A stretch of DNA of 64,000 bases from Escherichia coli. Its GTDB lineage: Bacteria > Pseudomonadota > Gammaproteobacteria > Enterobacterales > Enterobacteriaceae. The stretch lies in the NCBI RefSeq assembly GCF_013122565.1, contig NZ_CP053258.1. One strand, written 5' to 3'. Made by a program: the position numbers and the translations under genes. Positions within the stretch are counted from its first letter, which is position 1. Each line of letters opens with the position of its first letter. Below are positions 17,553 through 30,969 of the stretch, piece after piece. The notes under the pieces are model-generated. The model was given only the letters and a program-made list of their open reading frames with translations, did no database searches and was not told the DNA's origin.

Positions 17553-19637
17553 ATGGAAAGCAAACGTCTGGATAATGCCGCGCTGGCGGCGGGGATTAGC
17601 CCCAATTACATCAATGCCCACGGTAAACCGCAGTCGATTAGCGCCGAAACCAAACGGCGTTTGCTTGACGCGATGCATCAACGTACCGCCACGAAAGTGG
17701 CGGTAACGCCAGTCCCGAATGTCATGGTTTATACCAGCGGCAAAAAAATGCCGATGGTGGTGGAGGGCAGCGGCGAATATAGCTGGCTGCTGACCACCGA
17801 AGAAGGAACGCAGTACAAAGGCCATGTAACTGGGGGCAAAGCGTTCAATCTACCGACGAAGCTGCCGGAAGGTTATCACACGCTGACGCTTACCCAGGAA
17901 GACCAGCGCGCGCATTGCAGGGTGATTGTCGCCCCGAAACGCTGTTACGAACCGCAGGCGTTGCTGAATAAACAAAAGCTGTGGGGTGCCTGCGTCCAGC
18001 TTTATACGCTGCGATCGGAAAAAAACTGGGGTATTGGGGATTTTGGCGATCTCAAAGCGATGCTGGTGGATGTGGCAAAACGTGGCGGGTCGTTCATCGG
18101 CCTGAACCCGATTCATGCGCTCTATCCGGCAAATCCGGAGAGCGCCAGCCCATACAGCCCGTCTTCTCGCCGCTGGCTGAATGTGATTTATATCGACGTT
18201 AACGCCGTTGAAGATTTCCATCTTAGCGAAGAGGCTCAGGCCTGGTGGCAGTTGCCGACCACGCAACAGACGCTGCAACAGGCGCGGGATGCCGACTGGG
18301 TCGATTACTCCACGGTTACCGCCCTAAAAATGACAGCATTACGAATGGCGTGGAAAGGTTTCGCGCAACGTGATGATGAGCAGATGGCCGCGTTTCGCCA
18401 GTTTGTTGCAGATCAAGGCGACAGCCTGTTCTGGCAGGCAGCCTTTGATGCGCTACATGCCCAGCAAGTGAAAGAGGACGAAATGCGCTGGGGCTGGCCT
18501 GCATGGCCAGAGATGTATCAGAACGTGGATTCACCAGAAGTGCGTCAGTTCTGCGCAGAACATCGCGATGACGTTGATTTTTATCTCTGGTTGCAGTGGC
18601 TGGCTTACAGCCAGTTTGCCGCCTGCTGGGAGATAAGCCAGGGCTATGAAATGCCGATTGGCTTGTATCGTGATCTGGCGGTTGGCGTAGCGGAAGGTGG
18701 GGCGGAAACCTGGTGCGACCGTGAACTGTATTGCCTGAAAGCGTCGGTTGGCGCGCCGCCGGATATCCTCGGCCCGTTGGGGCAGAACTGGGGATTGCCG
18801 CCGATGGATCCGCATATCATCACCGCGCGTGCCTATGAACCGTTTATCGAGCTGTTGCGTGCCAATATGCAAAACTGCGGCGCATTACGAATTGACCATG
18901 TGATGTCGATGCTGCGTTTGTGGTGGATACCGTATGGCGAGACGGCAGATCAGGGCGCGTATGTACACTATCCGGTGGATGATCTGCTTTCGATTCTGGC
19001 ACTCGAAAGTAAACGTCATCGCTGTATGGTGATTGGTGAAGATCTCGGTACCGTACCCGTAGAGATTGTTGGTAAGCTGCGCAGCAGCGGTGTGTACTCC
19101 TACAAAGTGCTCTATTTCGAAAACGACCACGAGAAGACGTTCCGTGCACCGAAAGCGTATCCGGAGCAGTCGATGGCGGTTGCGGCGACACATGACCTGC
19201 CTACGCTACGCGGTTACTGGGAGAGCGGGGATCTAACGCTGGGCAAAACCCTGGGGCTGTATCCGGATGAAGTGGTACTGCGCGGTCTGTATCAGGATCG
19301 CGAACTGGCGAAGCAAGGACTGCTGGATGCTCTGCATAAATATGGTTGTCTGCCAAAACGTGCCGGGCATAAGGCATCGTTGATGTCGATGACGCCGACG
19401 CTTAATCGTGGTTTGCAGCGCTACATTGCCGACAGTAACAGTGCTCTGTTAGGACTACAGCCGGAAGACTGGCTGGATATGGCCGAACCGGTGAATATTC
19501 CTGGCACCAGTTACCAGTATAAAAACTGGCGACGCAAGCTTTCCGCAACGCTTGAGTCGATGTTTGCCGATGATGGCGTGAACAAGTTGCTGAAGGATTT
19601 GGACAGACGGCGCAGAGCTGCAGCGAAGAAGAAGTAG
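17553..19637 (+). CDS. malQ: 4-alpha-glucanotransferase (amylomaltase)
   Basis: 694 aa. Confidence 0.97.
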   Translation: MESKRLDNAALAAGISPNYINAHGKPQSISAETKRRLLDAMHQRTATKVAVTPVPNVMVYTSGKKMPMVVEGSGEYSWLLTTEEGTQYKGHVTGGKAFNLPTKLPEGYHTLTLTQEDQRAHCRVIVAPKRCYEPQALLNKQKLWGACVQLYTLRSEKNWGIGDFGDLKAMLVDVAKRGGSFIGLNPIHALYPANPESASPYSPSSRRWLNVIYIDVNAVEDFHLSEEAQAWWQLPTTQQTLQQARDADWVDYSTVTALKMTALRMAWKGFAQRDDEQMAAFRQFVADQGDSLFWQAAFDALHAQQVKEDEMRWGWPAWPEMYQNVDSPEVRQFCAEHRDDVDFYLWLQWLAYSQFAACWEISQGYEMPIGLYRDLAVGVAEGGAETWCDRELYCLKASVGAPPDILGPLGQNWGLPPMDPHIITARAYEPFIELLRANMQNCGALRIDHVMSMLRLWWIPYGETADQGAYVHYPVDDLLSILALESKRHRCMVIGEDLGTVPVEIVGKLRSSGVYSYKVLYFENDHEKTFRAPKAYPEQSMAVAATHDLPTLRGYWESGDLTLGKTLGLYPDEVVLRGLYQDRELAKQGLLDALHKYGCLPKRAGHKASLMSMTPTLNRGLQRYIADSNSALLGLQPEDWLDMAEPVNIPGTSYQYKNWRRKLSATLESMFADDGVNKLLKDLDRRRRAAAKKK

Positions 19638-24589: not shown

Positions 24590-24826
24590 TTAACGCAGCG
24601 CCCACCACTCGCGCAGACAGGCTTTGCCTTCCGGGCAGCTTTTACAACTGCCAGAGAGGCAGCCGTCAGGTTCTTCCTGAATCCGCACGGCTTTGCCCAT
24701 GCTTTCCAGCTGTTGCAGCATGGCGTTAATCATTGGCTGCGGCGTGTTCAATGTCTGGCTTATCTGGGCCGCTTCCATACGGCCCCGTAACGCCAGCAAA
24801 TCACGTACCTGAATAAGTGAAGCCAT
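24590..24826 (-). CDS. feoC: FeoC, ferrous-iron transport accessory/regulatory protein
   Basis: 78 aa; four-Cys C-terminus. Confidence 0.93.
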
Positions 24827-27147
24827 TAATGGCAATCACCGGTGGTGCTGGCTGCGCAGCAACTACTTACCGACTTGCGGGTTGCCAGCAGTTCGATATC
24901 CACCCGGCTACGCGCGCGGCGCAGCAGACCGATAACCACGATGTTAAACAGGATAACCGTCAGAATGCACACCAGGCTGTAAGTTGGGTGCTGACTGTAG
25001 CTGGCGACTTGATAGAACAATGTTGCCAGCGAGTAAGCGATATTCAGCCCCCACAGGATGGAGAAGCCCATCCAGCCACGGCTTGATTCACGGGCGATGG
25101 CTCCCATCACCGAGATACACGGTACATACAGCAGGACGAAAATCAGGTAGCTGTATGCGGCAGCTGCGCTACCGAATTTCTGATCCATCACGCCCATCGC
25201 CCCGGTACCCATTTCGCCGTCGCCTTTGCTGGCTTCAATCGGGTTCATCAGTACGCTAAGGCTGAAGGTGTCTTTCAGGCTCTGCCAGGTTTCATCTACC
25301 GCACTGAACAGCTCTTCACCGAGGTTAAACTCTGCCGGATTGAACTCTTCGTCCTGAATATTTTCTGCGGTGTAGAGGGTGTTGAGCGTACCCACCACCA
25401 CTTCTTTCGCCATTGCGCCCGTAAACAGGCCAACCGTTGCCTGCCAGTTATCTTCATGCACGCCAATCGGCTTGAAGACTGGGGTGATCACCCGGCTGAC
25501 GGAAGCCAGCGCCGAGTCGTTGATGTTATCGACGATTTTCCCGCTCAACGAGAAGCTGTTGAAAGCGCTCAGGAAAATGCTGACGATGATAATCACTTTA
25601 CCAGCACGCAGAACGAAGCCTTTCAGACGCTGCCAGGTCTGGATAATCAGGCTTTTAACGTGTGGTACATGGTAGACCGGCAGCTCCATGACAAACGGCG
25701 TCGCTTCACCGCGCATGATGGTGTACTTGAGCATCAGGCCAGTCAGCACCGCCATCACAATACCGAGCATATACAGCGAGAAGACCGCCAGCGCGCCGTT
25801 CTGCCCGAAGAAGGCAGCCGCAAAGACCGCGAAGATAGCCAGACGCGCGCCGCAGGACATAAACGGTGCCATCATAATGGTCATCAGACGTTCACGCGGT
25901 GCATCAAGCGTACGTGCGCCCATTACCGACGGTACGTTACAACCGAAACCAACGATCAGCGGCACAAAGGATTTCCCCGGCAAGCCCAGCGCCTGCATCA
26001 GGCGGTCCATCACAAACGCTGCACGCGCCATATAGCCGGAGTCCTCAAGGAAGGAGAGGAACAGGTACATCATGCCGATCTGCGGCACCAGTGGCAGCAC
26101 GGTGTTAATACCGCCACCCAGGCCCTGGGCGAGGAAGATAGTCAGCCAGTCCGGGAAGTGGAGCGTGTAGCCAATCCATTGAATACCATGCACAAATAGC
26201 GCCACGGAGCCGACGTCAAACAGCGGCTGTAACGCCCCGCCGATGTTGATAGCCAGCAGGAACATCAGGTACATCACAAAGAGGAAAATCGGCAGACCGA
26301 GGAAACGGTTGAGCACGATTTTATCTACCGCAGTGGTGAAACGGCTGGGTTCTGCCGTCAGGGTGTTGCTTACCACATCACAGATGGCCGCAATGCACTG
26401 GTAACGCGCATCGGCAATGTGCAGCGCCGGATCATCCATTTCATTACGCAGACGGGCGAGGGCGGCATCCAGATGCTGCGACGCTTCACCGGCGTATGCG
26501 CGGCTGTAGATATCGCCTTCCAGCATTTGCAGGCCCAGCCAGCGACGTTGTTTCAGCGGGATGTCGGAAGGCATCACTTTTGCCAGTGAATCTGCTTCGT
26601 TGAGCAGCGGCTGTGCGTAATGCACCAGTTCCACATTCTCGTTAGCTTTATAGCGATCAATCGCCAGCTTGAGCGCTTCAATACCGCGACCACGGGTTGA
26701 AACCAGCGGGATCACTGGGCAGCCAAGACGCGCCGACAGAGCATCAATTTCAATACGAATATTTTGCTTCTCGGCAATGTCGAGCATGTTCAGCGCCACG
26801 ATGCAGGGAATGCCGAGTTCCAGCAGTTGTAGCGTCAGGTACAGGTTACGCTCAAGGTTAGACGCATCCACCACGTTAATCAGCAGGTCGGCGTCGCCAC
26901 TCAAAATGTAGTGACAGGCGATTTGCTCATCGAGCGAGGTCTGCGATGAGATGGTGGTCAGAGAATAGGTGCCGGGCAGGTCCACCAGCGTGACCTGATG
27001 ATCGGTGGTGGAGAATTGCCCTTCTTTACGTTCGACGGTAACGCCAGCCCAGTTACCTACACGCTGACGTGCGCCAGTGAGCTGGTTAAATAAGGTTGTC
27101 TTGCCAGAATTTGGATTACCAATTAAGCCTATGGTTAATTTTTTCAT
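24826..27147 (-). CDS. feoB: ferrous iron transporter FeoB (GTPase-permease)
   Basis: [21 protein letters not shown]...; 773 aa. Confidence 0.97.
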
Positions 27148-27163
27148 TGTTGTTATCACCGTA

Positions 27164-27391
27164 TTAACAGGAAACCGCTTCCACTTCTAATAAGGCCAGA
27201 TCTTTTTTGCGTAATACCAGGCTCACACGACGGGTTTCGATATGAATGGGGTCGCCGAGTGGAGCGACGCGCACCACATTAAAAGAGGAGCCAGGTAACA
27301 TGCCAAGAGAAAGCAGTTTTTGGCGATATGCCGGGCTGATTTCACGGGAAAAGCCAGTGATTTTCCACGCAGTATCTGGAGTGTATTGCAT
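27164..27391 (-). CDS. feoA: FeoA
   Basis: 75 aa. Confidence 0.95.
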
Positions 27392-27502
27392 AGGTGCCTA
27401 CTTGTTTCTCATTAACTGGATAACTACCTCATGGGGCGTTTGACAGCGACATGAGACCAGATGATTTGCCAACGAAGGAGAGATTAAATAATCAACAGTA
27501 CA

Positions 27503-27521
27503 ATGATAATGAGAATGGTTT
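27503..27521 (-). promoter_or_regulatory. Fur-box-like element upstream of feoA (aatgataatgagaatggtt)
   Basis: Resembles GATAATGATAATCATTATC. Confidence 0.5.
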
Positions 27522-27580
27522 CTATCAGCAATACTTAAAATGTGTGCGAATGTTGGTTTGAATAATAATCTGACTCAATG

Positions 27581-27594
27581 TTGATGTGGCTCAA
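27581..27594 (-). promoter_or_regulatory. FNR-site-like TTGAT-N4-CTCAA upstream of feoA
   Basis: 9/10 match to TTGAT-N4-ATCAA. Confidence 0.45.
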
Positions 27595-27728
27595 GGTTAT
27601 ATCGCAGCGAAAATATAATTCGAATAGCGAATTACCAGGACTGGTTAATGTTTAATTAAGGTTTCATTTGTTAATGAAGTGATAAGTATTAACGGAATAT
27701 ATTATGAGTTTGGTTGTGGAATAAAAAT

Positions 27729-27747
27729 GCCGGAGATATTCTCCGGC
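27729..27747 (-). terminator. hairpin gccggagatattctccggc with flanking T-run, downstream of yhgF
   Basis: Inverted repeat plus T-tract on the minus strand. Confidence 0.55.
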
Positions 27748-27770
27748 ACTTTTATGTCAGACAAGGCGTT

Positions 27771-27850
27771 CGTTGCCAGATGCGGCGTGAACGCCTTATC
27801 TGCCCTACGATTTCGTGCAAATTCGAACCGTAGGCCAGTACGGGCGTTTA
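27771..27850. repeat. REP-like palindromic units
   Basis: ttgccagatgcggcgtgaacgccttatctgccctac ... gtaggccagtacgggcg. Confidence 0.6.
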
Positions 27851-30169
27851 ACGTTTTTTGCCCATTGCCGCCGCCAGCGCATCCATCATCGCGCTATTAC
27901 CGGCAGGCTGTGCTTCACGACCGCGTGGTTTGGCTGCCGGGCGGTTGTTCTGCGGACGTTCATTACCGCCGCCGCGACGAGCGTTGGTTTCGCCAGGCTG
28001 CTCGTCCAGACGCATGGTCAGGGCGATACGTTTACGCTGAAGATCCACTTCCAGCACTTTCACCTTCACAATGTCGCCCGCTTTCACCACGGTATGCGGA
28101 TCTTCCACAAACTTGTTCGACAATGAAGAGATGTGAACGAGGCCGTCCTGATGCACGCCGATATCGACAAACGCGCCAAAGTTGGTGACGTTGGTCACCG
28201 CACCTTCGAGGATCATACCCGGTTGCAGGTCGTTCATTGTCTCGACGCCATCGGCAAACTGAGCGGTTTTAAATTCCGGACGCGGATCGCGACCCGGTTT
28301 TTCCAGCTCTTTGATGATGTCAGTTACCGTCGGTACACCGAATTTTTCATCAGTAAAGTCAGACGCTTTCAGGTTACGCAGCTCGCTGCTGTTACCCATC
28401 AGATCTTTCAATGCCTGCTGCGTCGCCGCCAGAATGCGTTCCACCACCGGATAGGCTTCCGGGTGGACGGTAGAAGCATCCAGCGGGTTATCGCCGTGGT
28501 TAATCCGCAGGAAGCCCGCGCACTGCTCGAAGGCTTTCGGCCCCAGACGGCTCACTTTCAGCAGTTGCTGACGGTTCTGGAACTGACCGTTCTCATCGCG
28601 CCAGGCCACGATGTTTTGCGCCATCATGCGCGTCAGGCCCGCCACGCGGGTTAACAGCGGAACAGAAGCGGTGTTGAGATCGACGCCAACGGCGTTTACG
28701 CAGTCTTCTACTACTGCGTCCAGTTTGCGGGCCAGTTGCGTCTGGCTGACGTCATGCTGATACTGACCTACGCCGATAGATTTCGGATCGATTTTCACCA
28801 GCTCCGCCAGAGGATCCTGCAAACGGCGGGCGATAGACACCGCGCCTCGCAGCGAAACGTCGAGATCCGGGAACTCCTGTGCTGCCAGCTCGGAAGCCGA
28901 GTAAACCGACGCGCCAGCTTCGCTGACGATCACTTTCTGTGCGGTCACTTTCGGGAACTGCTTCTGAACGTCGAGATAGAAACGCTCAGTTTCGCGGGAA
29001 GCTGTACCGTTGCCGATTGCCACCAGTTCAACGTTATGTTTTTCACACAGCGCAGCAACGGTCATCGCTGCTTTTGCGGCTTGTCCGGTGTGCGGGTAAA
29101 TGGTATCGGTCGCCACCAGTTTGCCAGTTGCATCGACCACCGCCACTTTTACCCCGGTACGCAGACCCGGATCTAGGCCCATCGTTGCACGCAGTCCGGC
29201 TGGGGCCGCCATCAGCAGATCGTGCAGGTTACGGGCAAAGACGTTGATTGCTTCATCTTCCGCGCGTTCGCGCACGGTGCCCATCAGTTCGGTTTCCAGA
29301 TGCATCAGCACCTTGATGCGCCACGTCCAGCTCACCACGCCTTTGCGCCAGCTATCCGCCGGGGCATTGTTCAGGCGCAGGCCGAGATGATCCATGATGA
29401 TTTGCTCGCAATAGCTCTCTTTTGGCGGCTCGTCGAACTGCGGATCGGCATTCAGCGAAAGCTGGAGTACGCCTTCGTTACGACCACGGAACATCGCCAG
29501 CGCGCGGTGAGAAGGCACCGTTGACAGCGGTTCGTGATGATCGAAATAGTCACGGAATTTCGCCCCTTCCTCTTCTTTACCGCTCACCACCGTCGAAACC
29601 AGATGCGCGTTCTTCCACAGATAATCACGCACTTTTGCCAGCAGCGCGGCATCTTCGGCAAACCGTTCCATCAGGATATAGCGCGCGCCGTCCAGCGCGG
29701 CTTTGGTATCTGCCACGCCTTTATCGGCTTCAATATATTGCGCAGCGGCGACTTCTGGCGTGTGTGACGGATCGCTCCACAGCAGGTCAGCCAACGGCTC
29801 AAGCCCTGCTTCAATGGCGATTTGCCCGCGGGTGCGGCGTTTAGGTTTGTAGGGCAGGTAGAGGTCTTCGAGTTCGGTTTTGCTTAGGGTGGCGTTGATG
29901 GCCTTCGCCAGATCATCGGTGAGTTTGCCTTGCTCGGAAATGGATTTGAGGATCGCCTGACGTCTCTCTTCCAGCTCGCGCAGATAGCTCAGACGCGTTT
30001 CCAGATTACGCAGCTGCGTGTCATCCAGACCGCCGGTGATTTCCTTACGATAACGTGCGATAAACGGCACGGTATTCCCTTCGTCAAGCAGGCGAACGGC
30101 AGCGTCAACCTGTTCCGGGCGCGCCTGAATTTCACCCGCAATAATGCGGCAGAACGAATCATTCATCAT
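27848..30169 (-). CDS. yhgF: Tex-like transcription accessory protein
   Basis: 773 aa; C-terminal S1 domain. Confidence 0.95.
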
Positions 30170-30742: not shown

Positions 30743-30969
30743 CTCGTTGATTCCCTTTGTCTGTTTGATAATGCGCACATTGGGTATAACGTGATCATAT
30801 CAACAGAATCAATAATGTTTCGCCGAATAAATTGTATACTTAAGCTGCTGTTTAATATGCTTTGTAACAATTTAGGCTGAAATTCATACCAGATTTAGCT
30901 GGTGACGAACGTGAGCTTTTTTAAGAATACACGCTTACAAATTGTTGCGAACCTTTGGGAGTACAAACA

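Follow-up and report, generated by a model that had tools for sequence, protein, structure and literature searches.

Genomic Setting of the feoABC Control Region

The window, that is, the whole stretch of 64,000 nucleotides analyzed here, is a segment of an Escherichia chromosome, and the six-frame list of its open reading frames places four minus-strand genes around the region of interest, namely feoC (24590-24835), feoB (24826-27159), feoA (27164-27391), and yhgF (27848-30169). According to the same list, the product of yhgF is a 773-aa protein of the Tex family (tex), and greB, ompR, and envZ lie beyond this gene. Transcription of feoA runs leftwards on the minus strand, with its ATG at 27391 (minus) and the yhgF stop at 27848, and the yhgF-feoA intergenic region is exactly 27392-27847, the interval that an initial annotation of the bare sequence had assigned to the region upstream of feoABC. 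This interval is the well-studied feoABC control region; Fur and FNR were recognized as regulators of feoABC as early as 1993, ChIP-seq and ChIP-exo have later backed this, and its recovery here carries little weight as a discovery.

The locus is almost universal in the species. A 901-bp stretch around the feature was found by megablast in 5,425 of the 5,426 complete E. coli genomes, annotated there as yhgF / feoA / feoB, and the 111-bp core at 27490-27600 was present in 5,424 of the 5,426, with 5,384 records at 95% identity or more. The intergenic region is 97.8% identical to that of K-12 MG1655, and the best value for any complete genome is 98.6%. Differences between the window and MG1655 include several at 27600-27720 and a GT-to-AC change immediately 5′ of the start site; in the alignment, the Fur-like and FNR-like motifs and all of the sequence between them are identical to those of MG1655 and of the closest genome. 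The positions of the sites, the in vivo occupancy by Fur, FNR, and ArcA, and the transcription start site (TSS) discussed below were mapped from published K-12 data. The offset between U00096.2 and NC_000913.3 is 1978 in this part of the chromosome, a value obtained twice, once with the FNR 14-mer and, independently, with the 21-nt ArcA site.

At the upstream end of the region, a REP-like pair of imperfect palindromes, consisting of two inverted repeats, occupies 27753-27848 directly after the yhgF (tex) stop, and GCCAGATGCGGCGTGAACGCCTTATCTGCCCTAC presumably resembles the REP consensus. In an Rfam search of 27100-28000, nothing reached the gathering score and only sub-threshold matches, REP-related or spurious, were returned; among these was the REP-derived naRNA4, which matched 27768-27805 with 32 bits (E=0.0011). 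The GC-rich hairpin GCCGGAGA / TCTCCGGC lies at 27721-27755 (minus strand) with A- and T-runs on either side. It is an inverted repeat with 16-nt arms, 94% complementary, that form an 8-9 bp GC-rich stem, and it was also returned by a terminator scan. The hairpin is followed by TTTTTATT on the minus strand and by CTTTTAT on the plus strand, which is the arrangement required of an intrinsic terminator. Judged from these features, the hairpin resembles an intrinsic terminator for both directions of transcription, which would end yhgF and insulate the feo promoter.

Core Promoter and Start Sites of feoA

The TSS of feoABC used by Park 2013 (PMC3798270), U00096.2 3538079, corresponds through the offset to 27497 in the window, and the G at 27496 gives the best fit to the spacing from the -10 element. 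The TSS is accordingly given as 27496-27497 on the minus strand, about 105-106 nt upstream of the ATG, and all site positions are numbered with 27496 as +1. On the same strand, the -10 hexamer TATCAT (27503-27508), 6-7 nt before the TSS, matches TATAAT at five of six positions, and the -35 hexamer TTGCTG (27526-27531) matches TTGACA at three of six. With a spacer of 17 nt, the promoter agrees with the consensus at 8 of 12 positions, which fits an activator-dependent promoter. A generic promoter scan of 27300-27900 called no promoter, because 8/12 falls below its threshold, and the TSS tables of Kim 2012 hold no entry for feoA.

For the analysis of conservation, one genome was taken per species with FeoA, which gave 80 Enterobacteriaceae loci; only one locus lacked the -10 block that served as the anchor. 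Across genera, TATCAT is invariant and the -35 hexamer is highly conserved, reading TTGATG in most of the other genera. The start of feoA itself consists of an SD-like AGUAGG (27397-27402) and the start codon at 27389-27391 on the minus strand, and the alignments showed that the AAGTAGG directly 5′ of the ATG is nearly invariant across genera.

Fur Operators

There is a single copy of the Fur-like 19-mer AATGATAATGAGAATGGTT in the window, located on the plus strand at 27502-27520. The initial annotation had recognized this Fur-box-like motif, which coincides with a site of Chen 2007 (PMC2189734) and with ChIP-exo peaks, and had placed it one base off, at 27503-27521. On the basis of our scans, the sites of Chen 2007, and the ChIP-exo peaks, the 19-mer is part of a proximal Fur operator at 27496-27529 (+1 to -33) that covers the -35 element, the spacer, the -10 element, and +1. 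In the 9-1-9 register, the operator consists of two overlapping 19-mers 6 bp apart (27502-27520 and 27508-27526), and in the classical register it consists of 19-mers that begin at 27499, 27505, and 27511, each 6 bp further on; AATGATAAT is a Fur half-site.

The two registers differ in what they say about significance. Against the 9-1-9 palindrome AATGATAATnATTATCATT, 27502-27520 matches at 14 of 18 positions, a score that no other site of the window equals; chance would give 0.3 such matches per 64 kb, and P is 0.014 when only the AT-rich intergenic region is shuffled. With the classical consensus GATAATGATAATCATTATC, agreement is 13/19 at 27499-27517, 13/19 at 27505-27523, and 12/19 at 27511-27529, and as 21 positions of the window reach at least 13/19, compared with 6.8 expected in shuffles, a classical match of 13/19 is unremarkable. 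We therefore dropped the classical consensus as a test of significance and used the 9-1-9 model and published data, and the Fur 19-mer is best understood in this register. Two other Fur-like matches, at 1876-1894 and 57739-57757, lie within long open reading frames and were treated as chance. The sequence by itself thus backs a Fur box moderately, and the decisive support comes from conservation and published occupancy.

It has been argued that the unit recognized by Fur is a 9-1-9 inverted repeat, and the same study listed Fur sites of 13.4, 10.9, and 10.5 bits centered at 3538065, 3538059, and 3538006, respectively, with two major overlapping sites 6 bases apart at feoA; it also reported that Kammler 1993 had annotated two feoA Fur boxes (Chen 2007). 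By offset mapping, these centers correspond to 27502-27520 (13.4 bits, exactly the 19-mer), 27508-27526 (10.9 bits), and 27561-27579 (10.5 bits). Fur ChIP-exo peaks have been reported at 3538047-3538080 in MG1655 and at 4100359-4100371 in W3110 (Gao 2023, PMC10164565); the former corresponds to 27496-27529, and the latter, which is AACACAATGATAA, to 27497-27509. In addition, an alignment of 19 genera and the comparison of 78 species revealed that the block TATTGaTGATAgAAACCATTCTCATTATCATTG is nearly invariant, including the 17-nt promoter spacer. A sigma-70 promoter does not need its spacer to be conserved, and this pattern points to a protein-binding constraint, which fits Fur.

As the Fur-like block overlaps both the -35 and the -10 elements, it could in principle be conserved only as core promoter, with the control of feoABC by Fur being indirect. 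The classical match of just 13/19 would accord with this reading, as would the finding that a feoA-lacZ fusion was repressed by Fur only under anaerobic conditions (Beauchene 2015). However, the ChIP-exo peaks of MG1655 and W3110 fall exactly on the block, the 17-nt spacer is conserved as much as the hexamers, the 9-1-9 match is the best in the window and scored 13.4 bits in Chen 2007, and Beauchene 2015 attributed the aerobic non-repression to a lack of activation, the promoter requiring activation in the authors' account. We consider indirect control very improbable and take direct binding of Fur to the proximal operator as the working interpretation.

The second Fur box is distal to the promoter and reads ATTGAGTCAGATTATTATT in the direction of feoA; it is located at 27561-27579 (-65 to -83), 1 bp from the FNR site. 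Its center is 27570, it agrees with the 9-1-9 consensus at 12 of 18 positions, and it covers one of the two boxes of Kammler as given in Chen 2007. It is only partly conserved across genera and lies outside the ChIP-exo peaks.

FNR Site and Its Distance from the Promoter

The FNR site TTGATGTGGCTCAA, TTGAT-N4-CTCAA, has its single occurrence in the window at 27581-27594, exactly where the initial annotation had noted a near-consensus FNR site. On the feoA strand it reads TTGAG-N4-ATCAA, and it agrees with the consensus TTGAT-N4-ATCAA at 9 of 10 positions. We constructed a symmetric FNR position weight matrix from the 62 ChIP-bound sites in Table S6 of Myers 2013 (PMC3688515), with the feoA site excluded, and 27581-27594 was the top match of the whole 64 kb, with a score of 15.6 bits that equals the median of the training sites. 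Another high FNR-like match, at 18403-18416, lies inside a long open reading frame and was treated as chance.

Occupancy data are available for this site as well. Table S6 lists the 14-mer TTGAGCCACATCAA on the feoA strand at U00096.2 3537982, with a PatSer score of 14.6, and marks it as coinciding with an FNR ChIP-seq peak in front of feoA, and Table S5 gives an approximate peak center of 3537996 (Myers 2013), which corresponds to about 27580 in the window, about 8 bp from the center of the motif. Of three ChIP-seq callers, MOSAiCS alone detected the peak, which ChIP-chip also showed, and no FNR-dependent change in expression was found in iron-replete medium, for which the authors hold masking by Fur responsible (Myers 2013).

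In the 19-genus alignment, the half-sites TTGAG and ATCAA are kept across genera, and the 4-bp spacer and both flanks are variable. That the palindrome is a CRP site or a product of chance rather than an FNR site is extremely improbable: CRP and FNR sites are related, and about 0.24 matches of equal quality are expected per 64-kb dinucleotide shuffle, but the TTGA/TCAA cores are typical of FNR as opposed to the GTGA/TCAC known for CRP, the palindrome is positioned under an FNR ChIP peak, its half-sites are fixed in place while the bases within and around them vary, and the chance expectation in 456 bp is only about 0.002. We therefore retain the assignment to FNR. The Fur 19-mer as the best 9-1-9 match and the FNR site as the top matrix match are both identical to K-12, coincide with the published sites of the mapped feoA promoter, and are conserved in position in most Enterobacteriaceae genera, so nothing in these comparisons speaks against the initial reading of the two motifs, and real operator sites had been correctly picked out without any tools.

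In 77 of the 80 Enterobacteriaceae species whose loci carry the -10 block, 84-85 nt separate the best FNR-like site from the end of the -10 element (the site scores at least 12 bits in 65 of the 80), which argues for a spacing constraint with the downstream promoter. The FNR-Fur-promoter module as a whole is thus found at fixed spacing across the Enterobacteriaceae, and its internal spacing is kept even in the Enterobacter/Leclercia/Lelliottia group, where the leader is shorter by about 70 nt.

Counted from the start site, the center of the FNR site in the window falls at -91.5. Class II promoters, with the site at -41.5, make up most of the natural promoters that FNR activates. Synthetic FNR promoters reportedly worked with the site at -92.5 (Wing, Williams, and Busby 1995). 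The position of -91.5 is far upstream for FNR and would be compatible with such reported class I positions. By analogy, the feoA promoter resembles class I FNR promoters in having one binding site for an FNR dimer, placed upstream of a core promoter whose -35 element is weak, and its site center is close to the -92.5 of the synthetic promoters; it differs in that two other motifs, the distal Fur box and the one for a response regulator, lie between the FNR site and the -35 element.

The unusual distance also raises the possibility that FNR drives a separate upstream promoter as a class II activator, from about -41.5, and that feoABC has two promoters. For the feoABC operon of Yersinia pestis, an upstream P1 over an Fnr-like site and a downstream Fur-regulated P2 have been proposed, and in the window the A/T-rich stretch GATTATTATTC follows the FNR site. 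However, this stretch is poorly conserved beyond Escherichia and Citrobacter, and the FNR center is at -41.5 of no recognizable promoter: that distance would make the -10 element AACCAA, and the nearby TATTAT would place FNR at -32.5. A class II FNR promoter was rejected for want of an acceptable -10 element at the proper distance. Furthermore, the curated sources consulted use only one TSS, and the distance from the FNR site to the downstream -10 element is fixed at 84-85 nt in nearly all species. An arrangement with two promoters is improbable in our view, and we proceed with the reading in which FNR acts on the single downstream promoter.

ArcA and Response-Regulator Motifs

Further upstream, an ArcA-P direct-repeat site, TTGTTAATGAAGTGATAAGTA, was located at 27668-27688 on the plus strand, between -172 and -192 from the start site. 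Here TGTTAatgaagTGATA contains TGTTA-like repeats 11 bp apart, the arrangement expected of an ArcA-P site. In K-12, the ArcA site TTGTTAATGAAATGATAAATA, which has a score of 17.6, has been assigned to U00096.2 3537888-3537908, under an ArcA ChIP peak; it spans -191 to -171 relative to a TSS that was determined by experiment and taken from EcoCyc or from reference 50 of that paper (Park 2013). Compared with K-12, the site in the window carries two substitutions, both outside the TGTTA/TGATA cores, and it falls in a block (27645-27685) that is conserved across several genera. The same positions are also those of the OmpR-shifted motif TTATCAnnnnnTTAACA; read on the opposite strand, the ArcA site gives the TTATCAtttcaTTAACA motif.

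Between the FNR site and the -35 element, a response-regulator-like motif, CCAACAttcgCACACA, lies at 27541-27556 on the minus strand (-45 to -60). It corresponds to the RstA box of Salmonella (TACA-N6-TACA) and is moderately conserved across genera as ACATTCCGTCACATTTTA. This motif has been placed at -165 to -150 from the ATG, and electrophoretic mobility shift assays showed that OmpR shifted only the fragment that carried the upstream motif, at the ArcA site; a short fragment with the CCAACAttcgCACACA motif alone was not shifted by unphosphorylated OmpR (Gerken 2020, PMC7315122).

Comparison with Related feo Promoters

The closest known system is feoAp of E. coli K-12 (Kammler 1993), for which EcoCyc and RegulonDB list Fur, FNR, ArcA, and OmpR. 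Locus and gene order are the same, the FNR 14-mer, the Fur 19-mers, and the -35 and -10 elements are identical to those of the window, and the ArcA cores are intact. The two promoters differ by a few substitutions outside the motif cores, and no functional difference is predicted from these. In the feoA promoter of Salmonella enterica with its RstA box (Jeon 2008, cited via Gerken 2020), the FNR half-sites and the Fur/promoter block are spaced as in the window, and a TACA-type response-regulator motif also lies between the FNR site and the -35 element, being TACA-N6-TACA in Salmonella where the window has CCAACAttcgCACACA.

The feoABC region of Y. pestis resembles that of E. coli in having a Fur site at the downstream one of its two proposed promoters and Fnr- and ArcA-like motifs upstream. 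It shares no detectable sequence similarity with the E. coli region. In Y. pestis, fnr and arcA mutations had no effect on feoABC, and iron repression was absent under aerobic conditions, whereas the E. coli feo promoter stays iron-repressed even inside Y. pestis.

A Model for the Integration of Iron and Oxygen Signals

In the literature, Fur represses feoABC, and FNR and ArcA activate it anaerobically. The promoter regulated by iron and anaerobiosis that the initial annotation had proposed agrees with this published scheme, and the picture that it drew is incomplete, not wrong. It lacked the core promoter, the distal Fur box, the response-regulator motif, the site shared by ArcA and OmpR, and the yhgF terminator with the REP pair, and the map of the region is here completed with these elements.

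We consider it highly probable that the region leads from the end of yhgF into a weak sigma-70 promoter under the control of Fur, FNR, and ArcA, according to the following model. Transcription of yhgF would stop at the REP pair and the hairpin terminator, and about 225 nt past the hairpin, the weak sigma-70 promoter TTGCTG-17-TATCAT would start the feoABC mRNA at around 27496/27497, with a leader of 105 nt. When iron is sufficient, Fe2+-Fur dimers would bind the overlapping 19-bp sites, 6 bp apart, at 27496-27529 and exclude RNA polymerase, and the weaker distal Fur box at 27561-27579 adjoins the FNR site. Without oxygen, [4Fe-4S]-FNR would bind TTGAG-N4-ATCAA at -91.5 and ArcA-P the direct repeats at -172 to -192, and the two activators would jointly raise the output of the weak promoter. 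The same upstream motifs might also be used by response regulators of the OmpR/RstA type.

Several elements of this model concern the mode of action of the regulators. Fur probably acts by promoter occlusion, and FNR, bound at -91.5, is probably a class I-like upstream activator of the same promoter that Fur covers. In addition, the distal Fur box, 1 bp from the FNR site, may let Fur interfere with FNR, and we infer that the strain represented by the window behaves like K-12. The conserved spacing and the position of the distal Fur box beside the FNR site provide a concrete picture of how iron and oxygen signals may be integrated at one promoter. It is a smaller possibility that the strict spacing of -91.5 and the Fur box set against the FNR site reflect direct competition between Fur and FNR.

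A Candidate Stem-Loop Module in the 5′ Leader

The 5′ untranslated region contains a predicted stem-loop module at 27408-27477 (minus strand). RNAalifold on sequences from Escherichia, Salmonella, and Citrobacter suggested an outer helix, in which 27468-27477 would pair with 27408-27416, and an inner hairpin, in which 27446-27456 would pair with 27427-27437. This alignment yielded a covariance model with matches in 52 of the 81 sources that were searched. In the resulting alignment, which was fitted to the model and in which the inner helix is gapped in a third of the rows, 92.6% of the cells can pair, compared with 86.9% in shuffles and at most 48% with slid partners, and 10 pairs changed on both sides. 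The MFE z-scores of the leader from single sequences were about 0, no better than shuffles, and RNAalifold on a MAFFT alignment of leaders from 25 genera gave no consensus structure. Our literature search found no description of a feoA leader element. A seven-codon upstream open reading frame in the leader, AUGUCGCUGUCAAACGCCCCAUGA, was considered separately and rejected, as it is not conserved in Salmonella or Klebsiella.

The structure is possibly real and constitutes an unproven lead. It is a doubtful but conceivable extension of this lead that 27408-27477 is a conserved two-helix RNA module controlling the translation of feoA or the stability of its mRNA, for example through recognition by an RNA-binding protein or an sRNA, and that it was lost as a unit in Enterobacter, Leclercia, and Lelliottia. 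The module is absent from this group, and in other genera its place is taken by a GC-rich hairpin that differs in sequence.

Regulatory sites upstream of feoA

Next to the FNR site in the yhgF–feoA intergenic region lies a second, distal Fur box (27561-27579), which matches the 9-1-9 consensus at 12 of 18 positions and was assigned 10.5 bits in an earlier study (Chen 2007, PMC2189734). The two sites are separated by only 1 bp, and this position suggests that competition between Fur and FNR is possible at feoA. The distal box falls outside the published ChIP-exo peaks.

Further upstream, a conserved 41-nt block (27645-27685; TTATCACTTCATTAACAAATGAAACCTTAATTAAACATTAA on the feoA strand) is kept from Escherichia through Klebsiella and Raoultella, and its conservation extends well past the 21-nt ArcA site. 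As the OmpR-shifted motif also lies within this block together with the ArcA site, the block may be common to at least two response regulators.

Conservation and variation of the promoter region

Within E. coli, no complete genome exceeded 98.6% identity to the 901-bp stretch 27100-28000, and 1,755 records matched it at just 90-95%; the source strain is absent from these complete genomes. Most of the variation falls in the REP region and on the far side of the FNR site from feoA; the 111-bp core promoter (27490-27600) is 100% identical to that of an O157:H7 strain.

Among the feoA loci scanned across Enterobacteriaceae (one genome per species), the two from Cedecea (L071 and L081) have no FNR-like site at the conserved position. 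Both carry a perfect-consensus TTGAT-N4-ATCAA approximately 230 nt farther upstream of the conserved Fur/-10 block, at approximately 370-380 nt upstream of feoA.

The group comprising Enterobacter, Leclercia, Lelliottia, and Silvania (loci L041, L043, L049, L057, L061, L064, L070, L073, L074, L077-L080, and L082) retains the FNR-Fur-promoter module with the same internal spacing. Its feoA leader is shorter by approximately 65-70 nt, the missing segment running from just past CCTTCG to just ahead of AAGTAGG. The remaining leader is approximately 34 nt long, with 38-41 nt from the -10 hexamer to the ATG. In Klebsiella indica (L072), approximately 130 additional nt with GC-rich palindromes were observed inside the leader, which reaches approximately 234 nt compared with approximately 105 nt in most genera; the corresponding distance from the -10 hexamer to the ATG is 240 nt versus approximately 106-111 nt.

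A candidate two-helix RNA module lies in the feoA 5' UTR (27408-27477) and shows some covariation between genera in a model-fitted alignment; the folding energies of this module were not better than those of shuffled sequences. In other genera, a GC-rich hairpin of different sequence occupies the same place in the leader.

Other motif matches in the window

Another Fur ChIP-exo peak (3534739-3534772) has been reported in the upstream region of ompR (Gao 2023, PMC10164565), and it falls at approximately 30804-30837 in the greB–ompR intergenic region, where Fur motif scans of the window gave no strong consensus match. Elsewhere, an FNR-like sequence, TTGTTGCAGATCAA (18403-18416; 14.4 bits), within a malQ-sized ORF of 694 aa, and Fur-like sequences at 1876-1894 and 57739-57757 (13/18 and 15/19), within long ORFs, are probably chance matches.
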